From NCBI GenBank assembly GCA_963719515.1, contig CAVRCJ010000003.1:96001-160000 (forward strand): 64,000 nt of DNA. Direction: 5' to 3'. The stretch is from an uncultured cyanobacterium. Lineage in GTDB: Bacteria; Cyanobacteriota; Cyanobacteriia; CAKZMO01. Positions 11,931-49,294 of this stretch are shown here, in pieces. Below the pieces are notes generated by a model. That model was not told the DNA's origin and ran no database searches. It worked only from the letters and a program-made list of their open reading frames with translations. A program made the position numbers and the translations under genes. Every line of letters starts with the position of its first letter. The stretch's first letter is position 1.

Positions 11931-12035
11931 TATTGCGCTGGTTCAGTTGCTTAGGACACCAGAAACGGCTGAAAGTCTGACGTTGTGTAGGCAACTGAAC
12001 GCGCAAATGTCCTAATGCCTCAGGATATTTGCTAT
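11931..12035 (-). repeat. ~105-bp MITE-like dispersed repeat, copy A
   Basis: Reverse complement aligns with 27650-27754 (atagcaaat.tcct.aggc.ttaggacatttgcgcg...ttgccta...tgtcctaagcaa). Contains internal palindromes. Confidence 0.75.
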
Positions 12036-37175: not shown

Positions 37176-40100
37176 TCAGTTCTCGCATGGAAGCGAGGAA
37201 GACGCTAACGGCTGCGCTTCTGCCACCAACACAATCTGACCCTGCTCATTTTTTATCCAGCCCTGGGCTTCAACAACAGGGACAATCGCCGGTCTAGCTT
37301 CTCTGGAGAAACTGCGCCGACCGCTGTCTACGGCCGGCCTCTGGTCATCGTGCGCCTGGCTTTGGATTTCGTTAGGGACAGCTTCATGACCGACAATGGG
37401 CAGCACGTCCTGCCACGGCGCGATCGCCGCCGGGTCGAGCGGACTTTGAGGAATACCGCCCCGACCCGTAACAATGAACTGGCTACCGGAAGCGACAAAC
37501 GTCTCGCGGCAGCTTTGGACCAAGTCTGGGGCCGCAAAGGTAGTGGGGAGCTCGACGGTCGATTGATCAGGATCGACCTCAGGGCTTTGAATGACAATTT
37601 CGCCGAAGACGCCGTTGCGAGAGCTAGCGGTAATATCGCTTTGGGTCGTGCGAAAGCGACGGGGAACGATACCAAAAATACCGCTGCTGGCGGTGATATC
37701 GACGTTGCCACCCATGCCATCAAAGGCGTTGGCGGTGATATCGCTGTTCCCGCCAGCCGTGAGAAAGCGGGTAGTGATGGAGATATCTCCGCCGTCGCCA
37801 CCGCCTTCAGCGGCTCCGGCGGTAGTAGAAATTTCGCTGCCGCCCTGGAGCAGCAGCAGGTCGCTCAGAGCGAAGCTCAGGTCACCGCCGTCGCTGCTGA
37901 GCGTGGTGGCACTAATGCGGCTGTTGTCGGCAAGCGTAAGTAGATCTCCCTCTAGGGAAACGCTGCCGCCCTGTCCCTGACCCGCAGAACTTACTGTAAT
38001 GCGGCCGCCGTTGCGTAGCGCCGTCTCACCTGCGATGACGGTAATGCGGCCGCCCTGCCCCGTCGATCTGGGCCCTGTACTAGATTCAATAGAGCTGCTG
38101 TTAATATCTAACCGATCGGCATTGATGCGAATTGCCCCCGCGTTACCCTCCCTGTTGGTATTGCTGTTGATTCGGCTGTCGGTCAGCGTGACCTGTCCGG
38201 GGCTGGTGATGGCGACGCCGCCGGCAGGCTGGCTACCGTTGGCGTCAGCTTGAATTTCGACGTTGTTGAAGGCGATGTTACTAGCACTCTCGATCGCTGT
38301 ATTGCCGGCTTGACCAAAATCATCTAGGTCAAGTGTAAGCGTCCTGGCGTTAGGAACTGGAAAAGGATTAGGAATCTCTACTTGGCCGCTCGTAGTGGTG
38401 CGCAGATTTCTGATCCTCAAGGTTTCTATGAAACCCCGAACGTCAACGTCGCCCGACTGCCCATTGCTCGAGAGCGTGATTATCTCTAGCCCTGAGACAG
38501 TATCAGACATAAAAGAGACTTCCCCCCCAAACCCTGTAATTTCTCCTGTCTCGGCAACAGAGAACGTAACTACCTGAGTCTCATCACCGGCGATCGCCCC
38601 CTCTATTGCCGCTAGGGAAATTTTTCCGCCATTTCCAGCAGTCCCCGAGTTTGAGAAAGAGAATGCGCTCAAATCACTGTCTGTAGAGATATCCCCGGCG
38701 CGCGAGGAGAGGGTGATATTGCCGCCATCGCCACTGTTGCCAGCGCTTGAATCTATTAAGTCCGATGCTAAGTTTGTATTTACGGGGAATACATTGGATA
38801 TCGAGAATGAGTTGGAGTCTAGACGTCTCCCGCTGATGACGATATCCCCGGCGCGTGAGGAGAGGGTAATACTGCCGCCATCGCCACTGTTGCCAGCGCT
38901 CAAATCTGCCGAAAACGGCCTTGAGGTGGCGGGTTTAGAAGTAGCGGAGCTTGAGAACGAATTGGATCTTAGGCTGCCTTCCCTGATGGCGATATCCTCA
39001 GAGCCCGAGGAGATGACGATATCGCCAGAGCCTGAGGAGATGGAGATAGGTCCCCCATCGCCACTATCGCCAGAAACTCCACGTGAGAATGAGGTCGAGG
39101 TTGTGCTGGTCCGTGAGCCTGAGGATGAAGACAGGTCGCCATTGACCGTAACGTTGCCGGTGCGGGAGGAAATAGCAATAGCTCCGCCATCGCCACTATC
39201 GCCGGAAATCGCACCTGCTTCTGATGGCATGCTTAGACCTGAGACCGAGGTCGAGATTGAGGATGAAGACAGGTCGCCATTGACCGTAATGTCCCCGGCG
39301 CGGGAGGACACAGTAATAGCTCCGCCATCGCCACTATCGCCGGAAACGGCGTCCAAACCTGAGAGCGCGTCAGAGCTCGACCCCGTTTCCAGGCTGCCGT
39401 CAATCGTAATGTCCCCAAAGGTAGAGGAAACGCTAATAGCTCCCCCGTCGCCGCTATCACTAGGAACGGTGCTCGAGTCAGCGCGCGACTCAGCGGTGAG
39501 CGGTGAGCTGACCTCAATATCGCCAAAGATAGAGGAAACGCTAATAGCTCCCCCGTCGCCGCTGTCCCCTAGAAGAGAGACAGCTGAGGCATCAACGCTT
39601 CCAACCAGGGTAATGCTCTCTTCAGCCGCTATCTGAATCTGTCCTCCATTTCCGCTATGCCCGCCTCCTGAAGCATCGATACCGGGAGTATCGACCTGGA
39701 TGTTGCCGCCTGCTAGCAAAACGACGTCGCTGCCCTGGTTTCCTGAAGAACCAGCATCGATTCTTGCTGCGGTAATATCGCCCCCGGCAGTGATTTCAAC
39801 CGCGCCGCTTGGGCTATCTATACCCGAGCTGGTCGTGATGACTGCAGCAACAGACAGGTTACCCAGGGCTTCTAGAGTCACTGCGCCCCCCGGCCCACCT
39901 CCAACCGAGGAGGCATTGATGATGAGCTGGGTTCCCTGAGCTGTCCCCCAAGGAGCTCTATTGCCTGCTTGAAGTAACCTGCCAGAATCTCCAGGGGCAT
40001 CGTCTGTTACGGTGAGCGTCCAAGTCCCTTCTGACAGCTGCCCATCGAAAACAGCGAGTCCCCCGTCCCCTTCCGGCTGAAATCTGCCGTTCAATGGCGT

Positions 40101-41387
40101 GGAGCCAGCAGAAATTGGCGCAGAAGCCTCATCATCGAGAATCGTATCTTGGAAATTATTGCCGCTCCCACCGATATCGCTAAAGAGCGGTAGCGCTGTT
40201 CCGTTCGGTGAGGTGAGTTCTGCAGACAGGTCCCCGGCGAAAGTATGCTCTGCTGAGAAGCGAACATCTACATCACTGATGTTGCTTCCCCCTGCGGATA
40301 CGGTGAAAGTAAAGCTAGCGGTTCCCAGCTCAGAACCGCTAACGGCATCGGGAATAGGGCCACCTGTATCAACGCCAATCACCTCACCCCCAACGACCTC
40401 TCGCTGCACTGAGGCGTCAATGATTCCCAAGGTCAAGTTGATTCCTGAAATAGCCAGGTTTCGGCCGTTGGTCTGCAGCGCGTCCTGTAGATCCAGCATC
40501 ACCACATCCCCCTTTCCGTTCCCGTCGGCGTCGGCCCACAGCACTATCTGGCCAGTGCCCCTCGCAAACAGCAGCGCGTTGTCAGCCGCATCGGCTATGG
40601 TGATGCCGTCTGCGGCTGCGACCAGCAGAGTCGTATCGCCAGAAGACTCTGATAACTCCGACGTCTCACTATCGACTAGCTCAACTCGGGTCCCCAAAAC
40701 CTGGGCAATTCCGCCAGGAGCAGCTAAGTGCACCGTGCTCGATACAGAATTTCCAAATAGCGTTAGGGTTTGCCCAGGGCCTACTTCTAGGTTGGCTTCA
40801 TTGACCAAATTCCCGTGGGGCTGATTTTGAGGCTGGGTATTGAACTGCACCCCCAGCGGTACGCTGATACTCAACAACTCGTTTTCTTGAGGTATAGCCC
40901 TAAAGTCACGGCCGTCGATAAAGGTAAAGCGGTCTCCCGTGCTGGCGGTAAACGACCCAGCAATGTCCAACTGCGCATTGGGACCAAAAACGATGCCGTT
41001 GGGGTTAAGCAAAAACACATCGGCATTGCCCAGACTGCCCAAGGTGCCAAAAATATCTGACGAAACGTCTCCCGTCACCCGACTAAATACCCGCGTGACT
41101 CCAGCCGGGTTTTCGAAATACACCCGCTGCCCTGCGCCAACGCTGAAGCGCTCAAAGCTATGAAAAACGTTCTCTCCCCGCCGTGCCCCAGCGCGAATCA
41201 GGTCAGCCGCCGCCTCATCCACCGTGACGCCGTCAATCAACAGCTGCGACGACTCCGCCCCCAGCGTCCGATCGGGGATGACCTGAGCCCCAACGCGATC
41301 GCCAACCGGGAAAGCCCAAAAAACGGCCAGCGGCACAAGACTCCAGCGAAGCCGTTGCGGTTTTAAAGAGGCGATCGCTTGCAGCAT
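37176..41387 (-). CDS. Filamentous-haemagglutinin-family TpsA exoprotein with an inserted proprotein-convertase P-like domain
   Basis: Signal-like N-terminus ending AQ; TPS domain (NVFHSFERFSV, FLLNPNGIVFG); GDSGDGG beta-helix repeats; C-terminal TGRGGIP and EAQGW motifs. Confidence 0.93.
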   Translation of the reverse strand: MLQAIASLKPQRLRWSLVPLAVFWAFPVGDRVGAQVIPDRTLGAESSQLLIDGVTVDEAAADLIRAGARRGENVFHSFERFSVGAGQRVYFENPAGVTRVFSRVTGDVSSDIFGTLGSLGNADVFLLNPNGIVFGPNAQLDIAGSFTASTGDRFTFIDGRDFRAIPQENELLSISVPLGVQFNTQPQNQPHGNLVNEANLEVGPGQTLTLFGNSVSSTVHLAAPGGIAQVLGTRVELVDSETSELSESSGDTTLLVAAADGITIADAADNALLFARGTGQIVLWADADGNGKGDVVMLDLQDALQTNGRNLAISGINLTLGIIDASVQREVVGGEVIGVDTGGPIPDAVSGSELGTASFTFTVSAGGSNISDVDVRFSAEHTFAGDLSAELTSPNGTALPLFSDIGGSGNNFQDTILDDEASAPISAGSTPLNGRFQPEGDGGLAVFDGQLSEGTWTLTVTDDAPGDSGRLLQAGNRAPWGTAQGTQLIINASSVGGGPGGAVTLEALGNLSVAAVITTSSGIDSPSGAVEITAGGDITAARIDAGSSGNQGSDVVLLAGGNIQVDTPGIDASGGGHSGNGGQIQIAAEESITLVGSVDASAVSLLGDSGDGGAISVSSIFGDIEVSSPLTAESRADSSTVPSDSGDGGAISVSSTFGDITIDGSLETGSSSDALSGLDAVSGDSGDGGAITVSSRAGDITVNGDLSSSSISTSVSGLSMPSEAGAISGDSGDGGAIAISSRTGNVTVNGDLSSSSGSRTSTTSTSFSRGVSGDSGDGGPISISSGSGDIVISSGSEDIAIREGSLRSNSFSSSATSKPATSRPFSADLSAGNSGDGGSITLSSRAGDIVISGRRLDSNSFSISNVFPVNTNLASDLIDSSAGNSGDGGNITLSSRAGDISTDSDLSAFSFSNSGTAGNGGKISLAAIEGAIAGDETQVVTFSVAETGEITGFGGEVSFMSDTVSGLEIITLSSNGQSGDVDVRGFIETLRIRNLRTTTSGQVEIPNPFPVPNARTLTLDLDDFGQAGNTAIESASNIAFNNVEIQADANGSQPAGGVAITSPGQVTLTDSRINSNTNREGNAGAIRINADRLDINSSSIESSTGPRSTGQGGRITVIAGETALRNGGRITVSSAGQGQGGSVSLEGDLLTLADNSRISATTLSSDGGDLSFALSDLLLLQGGSEISTTAGAAEGGGDGGDISITTRFLTAGGNSDITANAFDGMGGNVDITASSGIFGIVPRRFRTTQSDITASSRNGVFGEIVIQSPEVDPDQSTVELPTTFAAPDLVQSCRETFVASGSQFIVTGRGGIPQSPLDPAAIAPWQDVLPIVGHEAVPNEIQSQAHDDQRPAVDSGRRSFSREARPAIVPVVEAQGWIKNEQGQIVLVAEAQPLASSSLPCEN

Positions 41388-41492
41388 AATCAGTATCGAT
41401 AGGGATGGAGAGTCCTTAGGTCACCCTAAAGATTTCCTGCTCCACGTTACCTGAATTTCCGCATCATGTTCAAAGATGCGTAAAGGAATAGC

Positions 41493-42254
41493 CTATTCCA
41501 GCTCACAGCACGGCTGGATCGGAGCCGCTCCTACCTGCTCTAGCCCCACCTGCTCTAGCAGCGCCGCCCAGGCCTCCTGGCTTTCAAAATCGCCGCCATC
41601 CGCCCGCCGCAGCTCCCCTAAAACCGTTAAGGCATCGTGCCAAATTCCCGCACGGGCGTAGGCCTGAGCCTGAGACAGCGATCGCACTGTACCTGCCGAA
41701 AACGGCTCTACCGCCTCCGCTGCAGCGCGCTCAATCGTGCCGCGCACAAACACCGCCGCTGCCGGGCGGTCTGGGTCGCAGGCGAGAGAGAGCGTCCAAT
41801 AGTGGGGCTCATTTAGGGGCAGGGTGACCGTGTCAGGAAGGGCGATCGCCAGGGTTCCAGCGTCCGTATCGACAGCGAGGGACGTGGAATAAAGAAAGTT
41901 GTCGGCGGCATCCTGCACCACGAGCTCCATTGGCATCTCGGAGGTTACCGCAGTAGGAAGATAAAACCACAGGGTGGGGTGAGCAGCCGTAGTCTGGCCC
42001 CGAACTATCCCCTCTGTAATTGGCACCAGCGCCTTCAGACCGCTGTAGTCTAGACAGTCGCCTCGACTCGCGCCGCCGTCGCGTCGCCCCGCTGGGGCAC
42101 CTTGCCCTGAGGGTGGGGGCGGGGCATTGAAGCGTATCGAGCTGGGTTCGGAGGACGGCTGAAACTGCGCCGAGCTAGGCTGCGCTAAACCGAGTACCGC
42201 TAGCAGCGATAGGCCAGAGCCAAGACATTGGATGAGCGTAGAGCTGAGTGTCAT
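41493..42254 (-). CDS. DUF928 domain secreted protein
   Basis: Signal peptide; motifs GRRDGGASRGDC, HPTLWFYLP, YARAGIWHDAL and WAALLEQVGL. Confidence 0.9.
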   Translation of the reverse strand: MTLSSTLIQCLGSGLSLLAVLGLAQPSSAQFQPSSEPSSIRFNAPPPPSGQGAPAGRRDGGASRGDCLDYSGLKALVPITEGIVRGQTTAAHPTLWFYLPTAVTSEMPMELVVQDAADNFLYSTSLAVDTDAGTLAIALPDTVTLPLNEPHYWTLSLACDPDRPAAAVFVRGTIERAAAEAVEPFSAGTVRSLSQAQAYARAGIWHDALTVLGELRRADGGDFESQEAWAALLEQVGLEQVGAAPIQPCCELE

Positions 42255-42359
42255 AGAAGGTAGCGTGCAGTAACCCACACGAGAGAACGACAGAGACAAA
42301 ACAAAGAAATACTTGACCGCCCGAGCCAGATACAGCGTTTCTCAAGCTGGTGGAGTGCG

Positions 42360-42390
42360 GGCGGTGGCGTCGCACTGCGACGCCACCGCC
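42360..42390. promoter_or_regulatory. Perfect 15-bp GC-rich intercistronic hairpin
   Basis: ggcggtggcgtcgca-c-tgcgacgccaccgcc. Confidence 0.6.
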
Positions 42391-42430
42391 AAATCCATAC
42401 ATCACGTGAGCAAGAATTGCTATAAACCAG

Positions 42431-44935
42431 TCAAGCAAGGCGAGAATAGCTGCGGCTGATGATGCCAATGCCTGACCCCGCAAAAGCCAACGCGGCGGGC
42501 ACCAGCGGCACCCAGTAGCCCGCTACCAAAAGCCAAAGGCTGCCGCCCACCAGCACAACTAGGCCTAGTCCCCCTAGGGCTAGAGGTCGCCACAATCCCA
42601 CACCGAGTTGCGACCGCCCCACCACCCAGCCGCCCACCGCCCAGCCGCCAATCCACAGCAGTTCACCCCAGAGGGGCCACACCCTGAGCACAGACCGATC
42701 GCCCAGAGCAGCGCTAATCAGCTGGCTGGTCATCTGCGCCTGTAAAAATACGCCTGCAGTTTTGTCACCGCTGCTTGTCCCGTAGGGCGTAGCCCAGTCA
42801 TCCGTCATGCTGCTTGCCGTGACGCCAATCAGCACAATTCGATTGGCGATCGCCTCTGGGTTCACTTTGTCATCAAGAACTTGGGCGAGGGAAACCCGAT
42901 CGGCGATGACTCGCGGGGATGACAGGGCGCGGTAGTTAAGCAAGATCTGATTGCCAGCAGCGTCTATGGGCTGGTAGCCACCGCTGCGGGAGCGCAGTCG
43001 CGGAAACAGAGCGTCTCCAATGACTAGATTGCCTCCGGCGTCAAAGCGAGGGGTGATGTCTTCCCCTTGAAGGTATAAGAAGGCGAGGCGAGCGCTAAAG
43101 GCATAGGGCGTTGTACAGGTCGCGACGGGGTCGACTGCTAAAGAAACCAAGTGTCGCCGCACCACTCCGTCGCGATCGTCAAGGAAGTCGCTAAAGCCGA
43201 CTAGCTCTTCAGTCAGCTCAGGGGGAGGATCCACACCAATCGGATCGACGGTAGGGTCGCGGCTTTTGCAGACGCCCACCAGGCGATCGCCCGCCCGCAG
43301 TCGGGCTGCCAGCGTGGGATGGTTGGGGCTAACGGGATAGTCGCGGTAGATATCGAGACCAATAACTCGGGCCTGATGACGATCGAGGACTGTGAGCAGG
43401 CGGTCTAGCGCTTCATCTGATAAGGAGCCTCGCCGCTCCGGGGGCTGGGCGCGGATATCAGCTTCGCTAATAGTGACGACTAAAAATCGTGGGTCCGGTA
43501 GTTCAGCGGACCGCATCCGCATGAGGCGATCGAATACATACAGTTCTACGAGCTCTAAGCTCCCCAGCAGGCGCAGCCCCATCACGGCGGCGATCATCAA
43601 CAGCGGCATCCAGAGCGTGCCAATCTTGAGGGGCAGCGGCCCCTTCTCTCCTCCCGCTTTCTCTAACGCGGCTGAAGACGGGTGGTGAGTGCCTTTTAGC
43701 TCATCCCAGGTTACCGGCTGCTCAGCTGGGTTTTGCACAATTACAGGCAGCCAGGTGGCGCAGGGGCACAGCTGCTCCAAAGCCTGGAGCTGTTCGCGGG
43801 CGGCGCGGACGGCAAGGTAGAGCGGCTGACCCTCGGCAAAAGCCATAAGAAAGTGCTTTAGAAAGGCGTGGGCCACCCCATCGGGGACTGGCTCGCGCAT
43901 CACGATGACCTGGGGAATATGGAGGTCAGCCAAATCCCACGCTAGTCCCAGGCCATCGCAGGAATTGAAAATGGCCAGCTGTAGCCCTTGAGCGATCGCC
44001 CTGCGCAGGGCATATTGGAGCTGAACGAGACTGATAGTGTCCCTGCGGTTGAGCTGCAGTACGCCTTGGTTTTGGCTAGAGCTGTGGCCCGCAAAGAAGA
44101 GAATATCCCAGGAGCCTTGCCAAAGCTTCTGGTGCAGGTCGTCCAAACTGGGCTCGGCTAGGACCGTGACGGCGGCGCCGGGTAGGGTCGATAGAAGCTG
44201 CCGGTCCATCTCCACGTCGATGTCCTGGGCATTGCCCAAAACTGCTAAAACTGTAACCTGGCCGTCGGTCTTTTGGTGGGGCCGCTTGACAGAACGCTGA
44301 TAGTTGATCGAGCTCAGGGCGAGCTCAGCGTGGGGGTAGTCTTCGAACAGTTGCCAGAGCTGCCAGGGGTAGCGCAAGACTTCTCGATCCTCCGCCGCCA
44401 CGACGACGCGAATCTCATCGCTGCGCCCCAGCTGAGTTCTCAGCTGACGATCTATAAGCCGAAAGGTAGGCGATTCAAGCCAGCTGTTGAGCTGGTGCCG
44501 CAGGTCATGGCCAAGCTGTACAAACTCTGCCCCTGACACATGAGTGACGTCGTCCTCGTCAACATCGATGGGGAAGTCTAGCGAGGGCGCTGCTGAATCT
44601 GCAGACCCTTCTGCTACTGAATCTTCTGCTGAGTCGTCTGCTGGGCTGGCTTCATCCCCATTACGCCTCGGATCTGCAGAGCCCGGCGCCTTTACGTTTT
44701 GCCCTGCATCAGGATCCGTAGTCAGCGAGCGTCGTCGACTGCCGCAGGCGTCATAGAGGGCCTCGTAGAGCGATCGCCACCGCCGGTAAACCCGATCGAG
44801 GTCGGGGGCGATAGGTAAGCTGCCTGAAACCTGCATTGGCGCACCGCTGCCCGCTTCCCAAAGCTGCAGGGTAACGCTGGCAAACCCTTGCTGCCAGCTA
44901 CCTTGCCCCAACGTGAGCATCACGCGCTGTTCCAT
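42431..44935 (-). CDS. CHAT (caspase/HetF-like) protease - TM - CHASE2 sensor - 3 TM protein
   Basis: CHAT: FFAGHSS and IFNSCDGL. CHASE2: IGLDIYRD, DRDGVVRR and RIVLIG. C-terminal hydrophobic helices. Confidence 0.92.
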   Translation of the reverse strand: MEQRVMLTLGQGSWQQGFASVTLQLWEAGSGAPMQVSGSLPIAPDLDRVYRRWRSLYEALYDACGSRRRSLTTDPDAGQNVKAPGSADPRRNGDEASPADDSAEDSVAEGSADSAAPSLDFPIDVDEDDVTHVSGAEFVQLGHDLRHQLNSWLESPTFRLIDRQLRTQLGRSDEIRVVVAAEDREVLRYPWQLWQLFEDYPHAELALSSINYQRSVKRPHQKTDGQVTVLAVLGNAQDIDVEMDRQLLSTLPGAAVTVLAEPSLDDLHQKLWQGSWDILFFAGHSSSQNQGVLQLNRRDTISLVQLQYALRRAIAQGLQLAIFNSCDGLGLAWDLADLHIPQVIVMREPVPDGVAHAFLKHFLMAFAEGQPLYLAVRAAREQLQALEQLCPCATWLPVIVQNPAEQPVTWDELKGTHHPSSAALEKAGGEKGPLPLKIGTLWMPLLMIAAVMGLRLLGSLELVELYVFDRLMRMRSAELPDPRFLVVTISEADIRAQPPERRGSLSDEALDRLLTVLDRHQARVIGLDIYRDYPVSPNHPTLAARLRAGDRLVGVCKSRDPTVDPIGVDPPPELTEELVGFSDFLDDRDGVVRRHLVSLAVDPVATCTTPYAFSARLAFLYLQGEDITPRFDAGGNLVIGDALFPRLRSRSGGYQPIDAAGNQILLNYRALSSPRVIADRVSLAQVLDDKVNPEAIANRIVLIGVTASSMTDDWATPYGTSSGDKTAGVFLQAQMTSQLISAALGDRSVLRVWPLWGELLWIGGWAVGGWVVGRSQLGVGLWRPLALGGLGLVVLVGGSLWLLVAGYWVPLVPAALAFAGSGIGIISRSYSRLA

Positions 44936-44938
44936 GGC

Positions 44939-46180
44939 CTACGTCGTGAACGGTTCTAGAATTGTTGTGGTTCCCAACTGCACCTGGACGCTGAAGGCGC
45001 ATCTCGGCGGTAGCCGAAATCGCTTGAGCTGAATGTAATCCCCCATCCCTCTACTCTGCACCGTTTGTACGACCTTTTTTGATGGCGCAAGTAGACTGAT
45101 TTCAACACCCTTTGGCAAAGCCGCTTCTACTTCGGGCCGCAGCTGTACTCTTACGGCAGAGCGCCCATCGGCCTCCAATTCCACACTGACAAGCAAGATT
45201 ACCGGAACCGAGTCAGTATCGGCCTCTAAGGTAAGGCGCTTGCCTCGACAGACGATCCTTGCGGGCTCAAGCTTCCGAAATGCCATGGCAGCATCTGACA
45301 TAGGCAGGAGAGACTGCAGGGTCTGCCAGCCTTGATTCGACCGGTCAATTTCTGGCCTTGTCTGCGCTAGGCTGCGGAGCCACTGCCCCAAGTCTGTAAG
45401 GCTAAGCTCCTGAGACTGTCCCTGCAATTCATCTTGAACCTTTTGCCGAGCATTGTAAAGCCGCGATCGCCAGGTGGGATGCTCTAGCAGCGCTCCCCAA
45501 AGGGGGACCGGCACCTCTAAGCGGGGTATGGGGCAATCTGACCGGCCCAAGCGCTGAATTAGCGACTCGGCCTGTGGGGAAGGCAGGCCGGAAAGCGGCG
45601 GTACAGTCAGCCGCGTGCGTTCTTTAGGGCAAAGGGATCGCGATGCCGAGAGAACGGATAGATCGGCGAGCCTTTCGCCCGGCAAGCTGTAGGTGCGATC
45701 GCCGGAATCATAGCGTCCGTGCTGCTTAAGATCGGCGTGGGTCGTGTAGCTCCATAGACAAAGCTGGCGGTCATCGGGGTTGATTTGAACCCCGACGTAG
45801 TAGTCCCCGATCCAGCTTGGAATATCGACCCACTCTTGGGGAACGCGCAGCTCGCTAACGTCGATCGCTTCCGAGGGAACCAGGACTAGTCGAGCAGCTT
45901 GGGAATCCGCCGTGTCGGCAGCCGCTCCGTGAACCGAGACGGCGCTGCCGCCCACTAAATCCCAGATAGAGCGCCTGTTCCTATCGTCGAACTGCTCCGA
46001 GTTGACCCCAAACTCATCTTGTAGCCAAGGCAGGACGCCATAGAGACAAAGCTGGTTTAGGTAAGCCCGCCATGCCGCCGGACCCCGGTGGTGATTTCGG
46101 CTAGCTTGCCAGCTTTTAGCCTGCAGACTTGGGTCTAAATCAAGAAAAAGCTGCCCCGAGGGGTTGAGTAGACTTGTCAT
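44939..46180 (-). CDS. DUF1822 family protein
   Basis: Motifs AYLNQLCL, ELRVPQEWVDIPSWIGDYYVGVQI and YTTH; C-terminal Ig-like QLRP...YIQLK.F region. Confidence 0.9.
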   Translation of the reverse strand: MTSLLNPSGQLFLDLDPSLQAKSWQASRNHHRGPAAWRAYLNQLCLYGVLPWLQDEFGVNSEQFDDRNRRSIWDLVGGSAVSVHGAAADTADSQAARLVLVPSEAIDVSELRVPQEWVDIPSWIGDYYVGVQINPDDRQLCLWSYTTHADLKQHGRYDSGDRTYSLPGERLADLSVLSASRSLCPKERTRLTVPPLSGLPSPQAESLIQRLGRSDCPIPRLEVPVPLWGALLEHPTWRSRLYNARQKVQDELQGQSQELSLTDLGQWLRSLAQTRPEIDRSNQGWQTLQSLLPMSDAAMAFRKLEPARIVCRGKRLTLEADTDSVPVILLVSVELEADGRSAVRVQLRPEVEAALPKGVEISLLAPSKKVVQTVQSRGMGDYIQLKRFRLPPRCAFSVQVQLGTTTILEPFTT

Positions 46181-46197
46181 TGCTCCGTCTCCTGGGG

Positions 46198-47406
46198 TTA
46201 CTCTGCCGCACTGTAGTAGCTATACAACCATTCTTCCAAAACAGTACTCATCCCCTTCAATACGTCGGTGTTGAGCGAAATATGCAGGGTATCGCGACTC
46301 CAAAGAGAAATTTGTTTGAGCAGTGTCTCCCGCACTTTGCTCAACCGGCGTGACACCGTATATTGTTGGACCGACAGACTCTGCGCAATCTGCTGCTGCG
46401 TTTGTCCCTGACGGTAATACAATGCCAAGATGTCCTGGGCTTCTGGAGGGAGCTGCTCCAGCGCCTGACGCAGCTCTCGGTCAAGCTCAGTTTGCTGGTG
46501 CTGTCGGGCGTCAATCTCCTCTTGAAGCGCCAGGGCATCCAAGAGCGAATCGCAGGTCGGATCGCTGAGAGTGTCTTGAAGCTCGTCGCCACCTCCCAGT
46601 CTTGAGGTGTTGAGCGAGGTCGCTTTAGGGTATAGGTAAGACCGGGCAGCAGCGGCACAGTGGCGTAGCCAGACGTTGAGCGTAGCTCCATCAGCGCTTG
46701 GCGGTACGGGCGCTGAGGTCTGGCGCTGTTGGTTAAACTGGTGGGCGATCGCTTGCCAAAGCTCGGCGCTCGGCTGATTGAGCTGACGAGTCGCGTCCGC
46801 TGACGGGACGTAGATCGCTTTGAAGCAGCGCCACGCTAGGACGTAGGGGCTTACCTTATCTCCTAGCCCACTGGCCAGCAGCGCTTCTTCGAGTCGTTTC
46901 TGGCTGAGTCTACGCAGCAGCGCCCAATCGCTGCAAATGTCGAGCTCCTTTCGCTGCCGCAAAGTGTCGCGAATGATGTTGTTGAAAGCGGTGTGGGCAT
47001 AGGTATCAAGTCGGGAGCCTCTCTCAGGGGAGAAATGATCTAGAACATAGCCCAATCGAGCGATCGCTATCTGAAAGTAGTCCGCTAAACCATCGTAGTG
47101 GGCTGAAAACCGGGCCGTTTTGCTAGCGGCCCAGTAGCAAGTCTCCTGCAAGTACGCGGCCAGGTGACCATAGGGAAGATTGGCCCGGTTGTCTTGACCA
47201 CCGGTGAGACGCCAGCACTTATACCAATAGGTGATCAAGTATTTTGCAGTAGCTTGGGCCTGCTCGTCTTGTTCATAATTGATGCGGTTTAGAGCTGCTC
47301 TGGTGTGGCGGGCGAGCCGCACATCGGTGATCCACCGCTTAAAACGATCGTCCGCTAATTCAATGAAGGTCGAAAACTGCTCGACAACCGCAGAACGTTC
47401 CAGCAT
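46198..47406 (-). CDS. Cyanobacterial sigma-70-like factor (HetZ-related long ECF-like type)
   Basis: Region 2-like FSPERGSRLDTYA..IIRDTLR; region 4 HTH LYYRQGQTQQQIAQSLSVQQYTVSRRL. Start at 47406 or 47439. Confidence 0.85.
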   Translation of the reverse strand: MLERSAVVEQFSTFIELADDRFKRWITDVRLARHTRAALNRINYEQDEQAQATAKYLITYWYKCWRLTGGQDNRANLPYGHLAAYLQETCYWAASKTARFSAHYDGLADYFQIAIARLGYVLDHFSPERGSRLDTYAHTAFNNIIRDTLRQRKELDICSDWALLRRLSQKRLEEALLASGLGDKVSPYVLAWRCFKAIYVPSADATRQLNQPSAELWQAIAHQFNQQRQTSAPVPPSADGATLNVWLRHCAAAARSYLYPKATSLNTSRLGGGDELQDTLSDPTCDSLLDALALQEEIDARQHQQTELDRELRQALEQLPPEAQDILALYYRQGQTQQQIAQSLSVQQYTVSRRLSKVRETLLKQISLWSRDTLHISLNTDVLKGMSTVLEEWLYSYYSAAE

Positions 47407-47599
47407 AGAGGACAAAGGTCTAAAATCGCATCGTTTCATCTTAGATCCACTTCGCCCCGTAAATCTACTCGACCCAATCTACTCGACTATCACGGGCTAA
47501 TCCGCCGTTCTCACCACAATTTTATTTGCAGAGAATGCTATACATTGGGTGAGTTGGGGTCGGAACTGACCTGCTGTCCGTGTTCGTGTTTACAGAGTC

Positions 47600-49294
47600 A
47601 TGGTCATTGATGTACTCGCTCAAGTTTTGCTTCTCGATGTCCCCCCTAAGTCTATCCCGTCACACCTCGTTGCCCAGGTAGCCGAGCCCCCATCAACTCA
47701 GCCTCTCCCCGAACCCGACCTATCTCCGCTGCCACCACCAAGCGAGCTGCTACAGTCTCCCGAAGAAGAGCGTCCCTCCGAGCCTGAGGCCGAGGTGCCT
47801 GACCAGATTTTCGTCGAGCGCTTCACCGTCGAGGGCAACACCGTTATCGATGACGAAGCCTTAGCGGCGGTGCTCGACTCATTTGCGGGGCGATCGCTCT
47901 CTTTTGCCGAGCTGCTGCAGGCTCGCTCCGCCGTTACCCAGCGCTACGTCGATGAAGGCTACGTCACTTCAGGGGCCTTCATTCCGCCTCAGGTCTTGAC
48001 CGAAGGTGCGGTGATTATCCAGGTCTTGGAAGGGCGACTAGAAGAGATCAACGTCGACGTCAATGGGCGACTTAGCTCAGGCTACGTGCGGCGCAGACTG
48101 CGGCGGGCGGCTTCTCCAGTTCTCAATACCGATACTTTACTCAACGCCCTACAGCTTCTGCAGATCGACCCACTGATCGACACGATCTCGGCGGAGCTGT
48201 CGACGGGGGTACAGCCGGGGACTAGCGTACTGGATGTGGTGGTGGACCAGGCGGACACCTTTGACGTCACCCTGCAAACCAACAACGGGCGATCCCCCAG
48301 CGTAGGGAGCTTTCGGCGTGGCCTAACGCTCAGCGAAGGTAACCTCCTCGGCGTTGGCGATGGGATCAGCGTCGGCTACGCCAACACCGATGGGAGCGAC
48401 ACCCTAGACCTAAGCTATCGCGTTCCTCTCAATGCCTCAGGCGGTACCTTTGCCACCAATCTCGGCTTCACTGATAGCGAGGTGATTGAAGATCCGTTCA
48501 ATTTCTTGGATATTCAGTCCAAGTCACGGTTCTATGAATTCACCTACCGTCAACCCGTAGTCCAAGCGCCAGAACATGAGTTTGCCCTCAGTCTTACCGC
48601 TTCTCGGCGAGAGAGCCAGAGTGAGTTTCTAGAAGGGGTGATAGGGGAGTCGGTGCCCTTCCCGGCGCTGGGGGCAGACGAAGAGGGGCGCACCCGCATC
48701 TCGGCGCTGCGGTTTGCTCAAGACTGGACTCAGCAAGGGCCTCGCCAGGTGATTGCGGCGCGATCGCAATTTAGTCTGGGTTTAGATGCCTTCGACGCCA
48801 CTATCAACGAAACGGGCCCAGACGCTCGCTTTTTAGCTTGGCGAGGTCAGGGCCAGTGGGTACGGCTGTTAGATGAAGATCTGCTGCTGCTGGTGCGGGG
48901 GGACCTACAGCTGGCGGATAACAGCTTGGTTCCGCTGGAACAATTTGGTTTGGGGGGCGGGCAAACGGTGCGAGGCTACCGTCAGGACGAGCTGCTCACC
49001 GACAGCGGCGTGCTGTTTTCTTCAGAAATTCGGGTGCCCGTACTGCGGGTACGGCAGGCGGACGGACTGCTGCAGGTGGTTCCTTTCATTGATGTGGGGC
49101 GGGGCTGGAACATCGGGACATCTGATCTTGACCCAGCAACCCTAGCTTCCCTTGGTCTGGGCCTGCTGTGGCAGATGGGCGATCGCCTCAATGCCAGAGT
49201 TGACGTAGGGTTTCCGCTGATTGATACCGATACCGATGGCGGCACCCTACAGGAGGATGGTATCCATTTCACAGTCAGTCTAAGACTGTTTTGA
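47600..49294 (+). CDS. ShlB/FhaC/HecB TpsB outer-membrane transporter
   Basis: POTRA domains (YVDEGYVTSGA, EGRLEEI), VRGY motif, C-terminal Phe. Confidence 0.95.
   Translation: MVIDVLAQVLLLDVPPKSIPSHLVAQVAEPPSTQPLPEPDLSPLPPPSELLQSPEEERPSEPEAEVPDQIFVERFTVEGNTVIDDEALAAVLDSFAGRSLSFAELLQARSAVTQRYVDEGYVTSGAFIPPQVLTEGAVIIQVLEGRLEEINVDVNGRLSSGYVRRRLRRAASPVLNTDTLLNALQLLQIDPLIDTISAELSTGVQPGTSVLDVVVDQADTFDVTLQTNNGRSPSVGSFRRGLTLSEGNLLGVGDGISVGYANTDGSDTLDLSYRVPLNASGGTFATNLGFTDSEVIEDPFNFLDIQSKSRFYEFTYRQPVVQAPEHEFALSLTASRRESQSEFLEGVIGESVPFPALGADEEGRTRISALRFAQDWTQQGPRQVIAARSQFSLGLDAFDATINETGPDARFLAWRGQGQWVRLLDEDLLLLVRGDLQLADNSLVPLEQFGLGGGQTVRGYRQDELLTDSGVLFSSEIRVPVLRVRQADGLLQVVPFIDVGRGWNIGTSDLDPATLASLGLGLLWQMGDRLNARVDVGFPLIDTDTDGGTLQEDGIHFTVSLRLF

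Follow-up and report, generated by a model that had tools for sequence, protein, structure and literature searches.

A six-gene locus within a 64-kb window of contig CAVRCJ010000003.1 (the window being the whole stretch of DNA analysed here) encodes a sigma factor, a DUF1822 protein, a membrane receptor-protease with CHAT and CHASE2 domains, a DUF928 protein, and the two-partner secretion (TPS) proteins TpsA and TpsB. We propose that cleavage of DUF1822 after Arg302 by the CHAT domain of the receptor releases the adjacently encoded sigma factor, with DUF928 and TpsA/TpsB serving as the envelope-side input, and we put the probability of this reading at roughly one half. That DUF1822 would partner the sigma factor and be a CHAT substrate is suggested by a sigma gene adjoining it in 64 of 66 loci, by a conserved linker arginine and by a C-terminal domain that is probably PatU3-like; for cleavage by CHAT there are the precedents of HetF/PatU3 and Csx29/Csx30. 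As for the other parts, TpsA/TpsB, DUF928 and CHASE2 are most simply read as an envelope input module, portable between outputs and placed here on a caspase-sigma switch, since TPS genes track DUF928 and occur without DUF1822, no shared promoter motif was found, and DUF928 resembles in its predicted fold MtxA, whose gene lies next to that of a CHASE2 cyclase. The locus is a real and intact member of a computationally catalogued family, and its gene set has been in print since 2021.

The genes and residues that carry this proposal are listed below; each gene is an open reading frame (ORF) in the window.

47600-49294, (+) strand: tpsB, with ShlB and POTRA_2, divergent from the sigma gene
46198-47439, (-) strand: sigma gene, with Sigma70_r4 and TIGR02937
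44939-46180, (-) strand: DUF1822 gene, 413 amino acids (aa), Pfam DUF1822
42431-44935, (-) strand: CHAT-CHASE2 receptor-protease gene, 834 aa, Pfam CHAT and CHASE2
41493-42299, (-) strand: DUF928 gene, Pfam match above the curated cut-off
37176-41387, (-) strand: tpsA, encoding TpsA, 1403 aa
44084-44086, (-) strand: catalytic His284 of the receptor (FFAGHS), by codon check
43958-43960, (-) strand: catalytic Cys326 of the receptor (IFNSCDG), by codon check
45275-45277, (-) strand: Arg302 of DUF1822, predicted P1 residue from conservation and the HetF/PatU3 precedent
44939-45265, (-) strand: C-terminal beta-sandwich of DUF1822, aa 306-413, hhalign match to the PatU3 C-terminal domain
45446-45613, (-) strand: helical insert of DUF1822, aa 190-245

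Our ORF check returned the six genes and strands that an earlier note on this DNA had described, including its gaps of 17 nt between the sigma and DUF1822 genes and 3 nt between DUF1822 and CHAT. The CHAT and DUF928 genes are separated by 131 nt, DUF928 and tpsA by 105 nt, and the divergent sigma and tpsB genes by a 160-nt spacer. Pfam matches above curated cut-offs across the locus are TPS, DUF928, CHAT with CHASE2, DUF1822, Sigma70_r4, and ShlB with POTRA_2.

Conservation of the sigma, DUF1822 and receptor genes

A profile search for DUF1822 returned 121 matches in 31 of 41 genomes, at 1 to 21 matches per genome, and 60 regions of at most 20 kb were taken around such matches, long contigs being preferred; loci L001-L004 and the window were added. 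Together these contained 69 DUF1822 ORFs, of which 66 of at least 300 aa were retained and 3 fragments discarded. In a tree of the 66 sequences, 19 (including that of the window) formed clade A, 12 clade B (one loosely placed) and 35 clade C. Many sampled regions end at contig ends, and a search for related loci with the window sigma factor as single query returned true loci in three of six cases. The neighbourhood recurs in many cyanobacterial families, so the gene grouping, for which the earlier note had suggested a conservation check, is not due to chance. The same genome has a second module of clade B (L001:7338-13214), set amid TPR-CHAT genes and an insertion sequence, in which the CHAT-CHASE2 gene is broken into two frames in the assembly.

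A co-oriented sigma-like gene lies directly upstream of DUF1822 in all but two of the 66 loci, both exceptions being near contig ends, and in 44/44 loci with at least 7 kb of flank on both sides. The type of sigma factor tracks the DUF1822 clade (19/19 in A, 12/12 in B and 33/35 in C), and on these sequences the linkage shows one homologous family per clade rather than independent detection. A count in which 37 of the 66 DUF1822 genes lacked a sigma factor was rejected: two had a clade B sigma gene that the profile missed, and in clade C the sigma-like gene is a short one. The clade B sigma factor is a relative (98.9%), and the clade C partner, at ~216 aa, is of the size of extracytoplasmic function (ECF) factors, with a weak sigma match (SigK, E 0.004). 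This ~216-aa family, which precedes clade C DUF1822 at for example L011, L020 and L033, is unannotated, and most of its members fall below every Pfam cut-off.

The window sigma factor itself scores 109 bits against TIGR02937 (cut-off 42.9), with Sigma70_r4 above and Sigma70_r2 slightly below cut-off. Its start is probably Met12 (47406), which matches the database protein and the family consensus start and gives a protein of ~402 aa. Profile matches were to SigF (1l0o, E 2e-7) and FliA, and two other sigma factors encoded in this genome, both of group 3, align collinearly with the protein over sigma2-sigma3-sigma4 (193 columns, 97.4%). By these comparisons it appears closer to the SigF/FliA type (group 3) than to ECF factors, and it has insertions. 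ECF factors (group 4) have a compact sigma2 and sigma4 without sigma3, a pattern that the window protein, with its length and its aligned sigma3, does not show. Kinship with HetZ was also considered and rejected, only the helix-turn-helix being shared.

Downstream of DUF1822 there is a CHAT gene in 54/66 loci, 42 of them with CHASE2, and a Peptidase_C14 gene in three more. Among the 12 CHAT genes scored as CHASE2-free, two are cut by contig ends and one has CHASE2 by Pfam; periplasmic-binding-protein sensors were present in 5 of the 8 scanned. The window receptor consists of an N-terminal domain, CHAT, a transmembrane (TM) helix, CHASE2, 2-3 further TM helices and a short tail. Its N-terminal segment is conserved, and we label it EACC2 by position and architecture. 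CHAT matches PF12770 above cut-off and carries the His-Cys dyad of clan CD proteases in a CHAT fold, and His284 and Cys326 are invariant in 43/43 related CHAT-CHASE2 proteins. The earlier note had called the dyad intact and the receptor free of kinase or cyclase output; the codons encode His284 and Cys326 as it stated, and no such domain was matched in a Pfam scan. Its description of three TM helices after CHASE2 stands for the two C-terminal ones, which are clear (786-804 and 809-827); the third is weak (~754-772, hydropathy ~1.0). CHAT thus looks catalytically intact and, on its sequence, appears to be the sole cytoplasmic output. Against the HetF equivalog model the receptor falls far short (25 bits versus a cut-off of 1200).

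DUF1822 and its predicted cleavage site

Among the 66 locus sequences of DUF1822, 63 have Arg at position 302, as do 107 of 118 homologues from databases, and each of the three clades retains it. This is the only arginine column above 65% in the DUF1822 alignment and one among 13 columns conserved at 85% or more across clades, with Phe before it in 33/66 and Ser after it in 30/66 sequences (F-R-S context). HetF cleaves PatU3 between Arg117 and Ser118, after Tyr116 (Y-R117/S) (PMC9457339). In the AlphaFold model of DUF1822 (pLDDT 90.5), which comprises an alpha/beta domain (1-185), a helical insert, a linker and an Ig-like beta-sandwich (309-412), Arg302 sits at the domain boundary, immediately before the sandwich.

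This genome has a separate hetZ at L069:394-2658, above the equivalog cut-off, and adjoining it a patU-like gene, which matched no family model and which we take to be patU by position. Other parts of the genome contain two more genes related to HetZ and a CHAT gene of HetF size. With a PatU3 alignment of 30 proteins like this patU-type neighbour of hetZ, hhalign matched the C-terminal domains of DUF1822 and PatU3 at 79% (P 1.6e-5, 71 columns), compared with 8.6% for the DUF928 Ig domain, 1.5% for the reversed control and 44% for the best of 40 block shuffles. When the PatU3 C-terminal profile was searched against 184 DUF1822 proteins and 4358 genome decoys, DUF1822 was the top non-self match and 49 DUF1822 proteins were in the top 100; the reverse search with the DUF1822 C-terminal profile placed 16/30 PatU3 proteins in its top 100. 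The N-terminal parts of DUF1822 and PatU3 are unrelated. From these profile comparisons we regard homology of the two C-terminal domains as fairly probable, and by analogy DUF1822 is a predicted anti-sigma factor and protease substrate.

The N-terminal domain of DUF1822 found its best fold matches among PD-(D/E)xK nucleases (DpnI Z 6.9; others lower), although at Z <8 such matches may mean only a common arrangement. Conserved in clade C and missing in clade A, to which the window belongs, is an ADL...ECR motif that we liken to the PD-(D/E)xK nuclease active site. The model contains no TPR array. Neither TRADD-N, TPR nor Csx30 was among the listed fold-search matches, which does not exclude them, and similarity to Csx30 was likewise absent from the listed sequence matches. 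Foldseek gave no DUF1822 match at E 0.001 or better, Atlas searches with DUF1822 added nothing, and its PDB sequence matches were protein A constructs only, which we judged spurious. The 55-residue helical insert, which accompanies the long sigma types and is absent from the short-sigma clade, is a candidate sigma contact. An apparent co-evolution of insert and sigma type (24/29 versus 1/37, Fisher p 4e-12) was dropped as statistics, being a single clade-level event.

The predicted envelope-side genes and their upstream regions

DUF928 probably starts at Met16 (42254), judging by a signal-peptide-like stretch, and it is predicted to be an exported, periplasmic partner of CHASE2. Its model (pLDDT 90.1) has an Ig-like domain followed by TPR-like helices, and the best match among 48,161 chains was MtxA (4z29, Z 8.4, 146 residues aligned, rmsd 4.2), which covers both domains; common folds score nearly as high. 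DUF928 lies downstream in 33/66 DUF1822 loci, in all 33 behind CHAT-CHASE2, and behind 0/12 of the CHAT genes scored as CHASE2-free. By a hand count of locus rows, TPS genes are present in 20/33 DUF1822 loci with DUF928 versus 3/33 without it. A second sample comprised 40 regions around DUF928 matches in 9 genomes (from 99 matches in 15 genomes, regions already sampled being omitted); 39 of these lack DUF1822, and among the 39 there are TPS genes in 14, CHASE2 in 18 and an exported-type CHAT in 14. At L101 in the same genome, tpsA, TPR-CHAT, DUF928 and a CHASE2-histidine kinase follow one another with no sigma gene, and the order tpsA / TPR-CHAT / DUF928 / CHASE2, like TPS-CHAT fusions, recurs in unrelated loci. 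Also in this genome, L102:6530-16829 holds five TIR domains fused to CHASE2, then a 319-aa gene and a split tpsA.

Further features of these genes and of the intergenic region are as follows.

42063-42065, (-) strand: Arg79 of DUF928, ahead of the Ig domain in a Gly-rich, flexible tip (surrounding pLDDT 56-70)
39975-40277, (-) strand: proprotein-convertase P-domain of TpsA, aa 371-471 (PF01483, E 4e-10), mid beta-helix
37455-37466, (-) strand: G-[RK]-G-G-[LI]-P segment of TpsA, preceded by Cys, a sequence motif
47462-47487, (+) strand: exact 12-base direct repeat, two copies 14 apart, between sigma and tpsB

Arg79 is conserved in 99/104 aligned DUF928 sequences and is a candidate cut site or receptor-binding tip. 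TpsA, a haemagglutinin-like exoprotein, has the N-terminal TPS domain and TpsB the POTRA and ShlB barrel domains of a two-partner secretion system. After its TPS domain, TpsA has the P-domain insert, Gly/Ser repeats and a C-terminal GRGG-containing segment; the P-domain had been missed by the earlier note and is unique to the window among the TPS proteins of the compared loci. The G-[RK]-G-G-[LI]-P motif, which 13 of the 33 TPS proteins listed carry at a distance of 66-109 residues from the C-terminal end and which is present in 0/6 TPS-CHAT fusions, could serve an exported CHAT as an Arg site. At the start of TpsB (47600-47700, (+) strand) a clear hydrophobic signal peptide was not seen and there is an in-frame stop shortly upstream; a TpsB paralogue at L103 likewise has a short leader. 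Given this atypical signal peptide, export of TpsB is uncertain.

The earlier note had the freed sigma factor transcribe tpsA and tpsB, a claim that the data do not support: TPS genes go with DUF928/CHASE2, not with the sigma gene, and no upstream motif beat shuffled sequences. The motif searches covered the regions upstream of tpsA, tpsB, DUF928 and sigma genes, and in such small, divergent sets a degenerate promoter could escape them. Gibbs sampling upstream of 24 tpsA genes gave an information content of 11.0 versus 10.5-10.8 in shuffles, with no shared motif above them; two-box enumeration in mixed clade A upstream sets and Gibbs sampling upstream of 14 clade A and 12 clade B sigma genes also gave nothing above shuffles. 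The sole positive, in the sigma set, was discarded as coding sequence, and a 15-base match preceding DUF928 in both the window and L002 lies upstream of no other identified DUF928. A scan for the sigma-70 consensus found 2 sites versus 5.3 expected. The 12-base repeat between sigma and tpsB, of which no further copy occurs in the 64-kb window at one mismatch, is a possible regulator site.

The window is cyanobacterial, judging by the flanking genes (nrdR, a purB-like gene and psbB, the last two labels read off translations) and by the nearest named relatives (Elainellaceae and other cyanobacterial assemblies). A repeated element of ~50 bases at window ~11983-12030, probably an insertion-sequence end, is also on other contigs, with no fewer than 7 occurrences genome-wide.

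Precedents and alternative readings

Kaur et al. (eLife 2021; PMC8195603) described a constant EACC2 and caspase module with a variable C-terminus, including CHASE2, usually beside an ECF sigma factor and DUF1822, and proposed, on computational grounds only, a pathway that runs from sensing through autopeptidase activation to a final transcriptional step. The window has the same three genes, with an N-terminal domain, caspase and C-terminal TM sensor in the receptor and sigma and DUF1822 genes adjacent; it differs in that DUF1822, there called a TPR/TRADD-N protein, is modelled here without a TPR array, and in that the sigma factor, there called ECF, is SigF/FliA-like. In the source data of their Figure 3, three Fischerella rows also contain a 'TM+beta_rich+TPRs' gene, which by our model would be DUF928, and a TPR-caspase; neither a substrate or cut site nor a connection to TpsA/TpsB is given in these rows. 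With both the sigma, DUF1822 and EACC2-caspase-CHASE2 set and the sensing-proteolysis-transcription proposal in that paper, the earlier note overstated the novelty of the circuit. In the open literature, most subscription papers lying outside the search, we found no experimental study of the sigma/DUF1822/CHAT-CHASE2 module, no TPS-CHAT link in cyanobacteria and no periplasmic ligand of CHASE2 since 2018.

The closest tested precedent is in Anabaena PCC 7120, where HetF, a membrane CHAT protein with a periplasmic domain, cuts the cytoplasmic inhibitor PatU3 after Arg (PMC9457339, PMC13342950). PatU3 is co-transcribed with a ~400-aa sigma factor bearing insertions, sigma-HetZ, which it inhibits and to whose insertions and sigma4 it cross-links (PMC13342950); the window sigma factor is of similar length with insertions of its own, and DUF1822 follows it at 17 nt. 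DUF1822 does not appear in the main text of that paper. Here the receptor is not HetF, CHASE2 takes the place of the TPRs and the sigma factor is not HetZ; the locus most likely works like HetF/PatU3/sigma-HetZ, by analogy, without being a member of that system. In type III-E CRISPR, the CHAT protein Csx29 cuts the two-domain anti-sigma Csx30 and relieves CASP-sigma (PMC10028731), but that system is soluble, RNA-activated via Cas7-11 and uses an ECF factor, against whose model (NF041236) the window sigma scores 25 versus 100 bits. For the input side, MtxA of magnetotactic bacteria (PDB 4Z29) is an exported Ig-plus-TPR protein whose gene precedes a CHASE2 adenylate cyclase (PMC4439547); it differs from DUF928 in its cyclase output, in an extra N-terminal beta region and in an identity of only 14%. 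DdvA/DdvS of Myxococcus xanthus also combines CHAT with a membrane span and control of a sigma factor, but in the opposite topology: its CHAT lies in the periplasm, is incomplete and belongs to the anti-sigma (PMC11506125).

In the switch that we propose, exported DUF928 would bind the periplasmic CHASE2 domain, possibly once an exported TPR-CHAT has trimmed it at Arg79 and depending on the state of the TpsA filament. CHASE2 would then rearrange the receptor, of which the sequence shows the architecture and the invariant dyad, and activate CHAT, and CHAT would cut DUF1822 between its N-terminal part and the PatU3-like beta-sandwich. The cut protein would release the sigma factor or be degraded, and the sigma factor would take RNA polymerase to its regulon, in which tpsA and tpsB may be included.

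Several observations weigh against this proposal. The residue after Arg302 in the window is Lys rather than Ser, and an arginine may be conserved for structural reasons. In absolute terms, the PatU3 match is a weak one (best E 0.005) and is confined to a common beta-sandwich, before which the conserved Arg lies ~40 residues in PatU3 versus ~7 in DUF1822, and the window sigma factor shows no similarity to HetZ outside the helix-turn-helix. The correlation between insert and sigma type goes back to a single evolutionary event (independent pairs p = 1); independence is also lacking among the loci, one genome supplying 13/60 regions, and the clade B and C sigma profiles derive from the same loci that they score. 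No CHAT gene adjoins 5/19 clade A sigma-DUF1822 pairs (L008, L009, L010, L013 and L014). On the envelope side, the match of DUF928 to MtxA is moderate, deletion of mtxA had no phenotype under standard conditions (PMC4439547), and the exported TPR-CHAT gene is absent from the window locus, so that the trimming step would require one encoded at another site (L001, L101).

Part of the evidence can be arranged otherwise. The same switch could have tpsA/tpsB, and with them adhesion or biofilm formation, as the regulon of the freed sigma factor, perhaps in a feedback loop. Compatible with our proposal, this is suggested by the position of tpsB, divergent from the sigma gene, and of tpsA, last on the sigma strand, by a TPS gene in 8/9 clade A loci with DUF928, and by the predicted targets of CASP-sigma in its own locus (PMC10028731); we consider it somewhat unlikely, as TPS genes accompany DUF928/CHASE2 with any cytoplasmic output, kinases and DUF1822-free loci included, and the tpsA, mixed clade A and sigma upstreams yielded no motif above shuffles, weak as such searches are for small, divergent sets. 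At the other extreme, the TPS pair may be functionally unrelated and present merely through gathering in variable islands. The sampled region has no TPS gene in 43/66 DUF1822 loci, many of them cut by contig ends, nor does the second module L001 have one within its 20 kb; the uneven split of TPS genes by DUF928, together with the recurring tpsA / TPR-CHAT / DUF928 / CHASE2 order and the TPS-CHAT fusions of unrelated loci, makes this very unlikely in our view.

Other readings concern DUF1822 itself. Section 9 of Kaur et al. (PMC8195603) proposes a conflict system, in which caspase self-cleavage would launch an anti-invader or cell-death response with DUF1822 as adaptor or latent effector. The free exchange of sensors (CHASE2, periplasmic binding proteins, nSTAND-WD40), the wide range of copy numbers per genome, the nuclease-like fold matches of the DUF1822 N-terminal domain and the clade C motif all fit such a system, whereas the lack of that motif in the window's clade, the low Z scores, and above all a near-fixed sigma partner and a single conserved linker Arg better fit a substrate or inhibitor; we hold this reading to be quite unlikely. 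DUF1822 could instead connect receptor and sigma factor as a scaffold or co-activator, with cleavage absent or turning the system off. The neighbourhood data do not tell positive from negative regulation, and the five clade A pairs without an adjacent protease would suit a scaffold, but the tested analogues PatU3 and Csx30 are both inhibitors relieved by cutting, and DUF1822 probably shares the PatU3 domain, so that we strongly doubt it. An unlikely but more far-reaching version of our own proposal is a two-compartment, Arg-specific caspase cascade resembling Toll/Spaetzle, in which a TpsA filament would signal contact with a surface or a cell, DUF928 trimmed at Arg79 by TPR-CHAT would be the CHASE2 ligand, and CHAT would cut a PatU3-related anti-sigma at Arg302; HetF/PatU3/HetZ would then be a specialised offshoot of a large module family.

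The cut-site, PatU3 and input-module predictions extend to single residues (C326, R302 and R79). If the proposed switch is correct, DUF1822 would gain a role as a cleavable anti-sigma factor and DUF928 as a partner of CHASE2, many cyanobacterial CHAT proteases would gain a substrate rule, and the HetF-PatU3-HetZ circuit would join a wider family. The cascade, if real, would also make DUF928 a protein ligand of CHASE2 domains.

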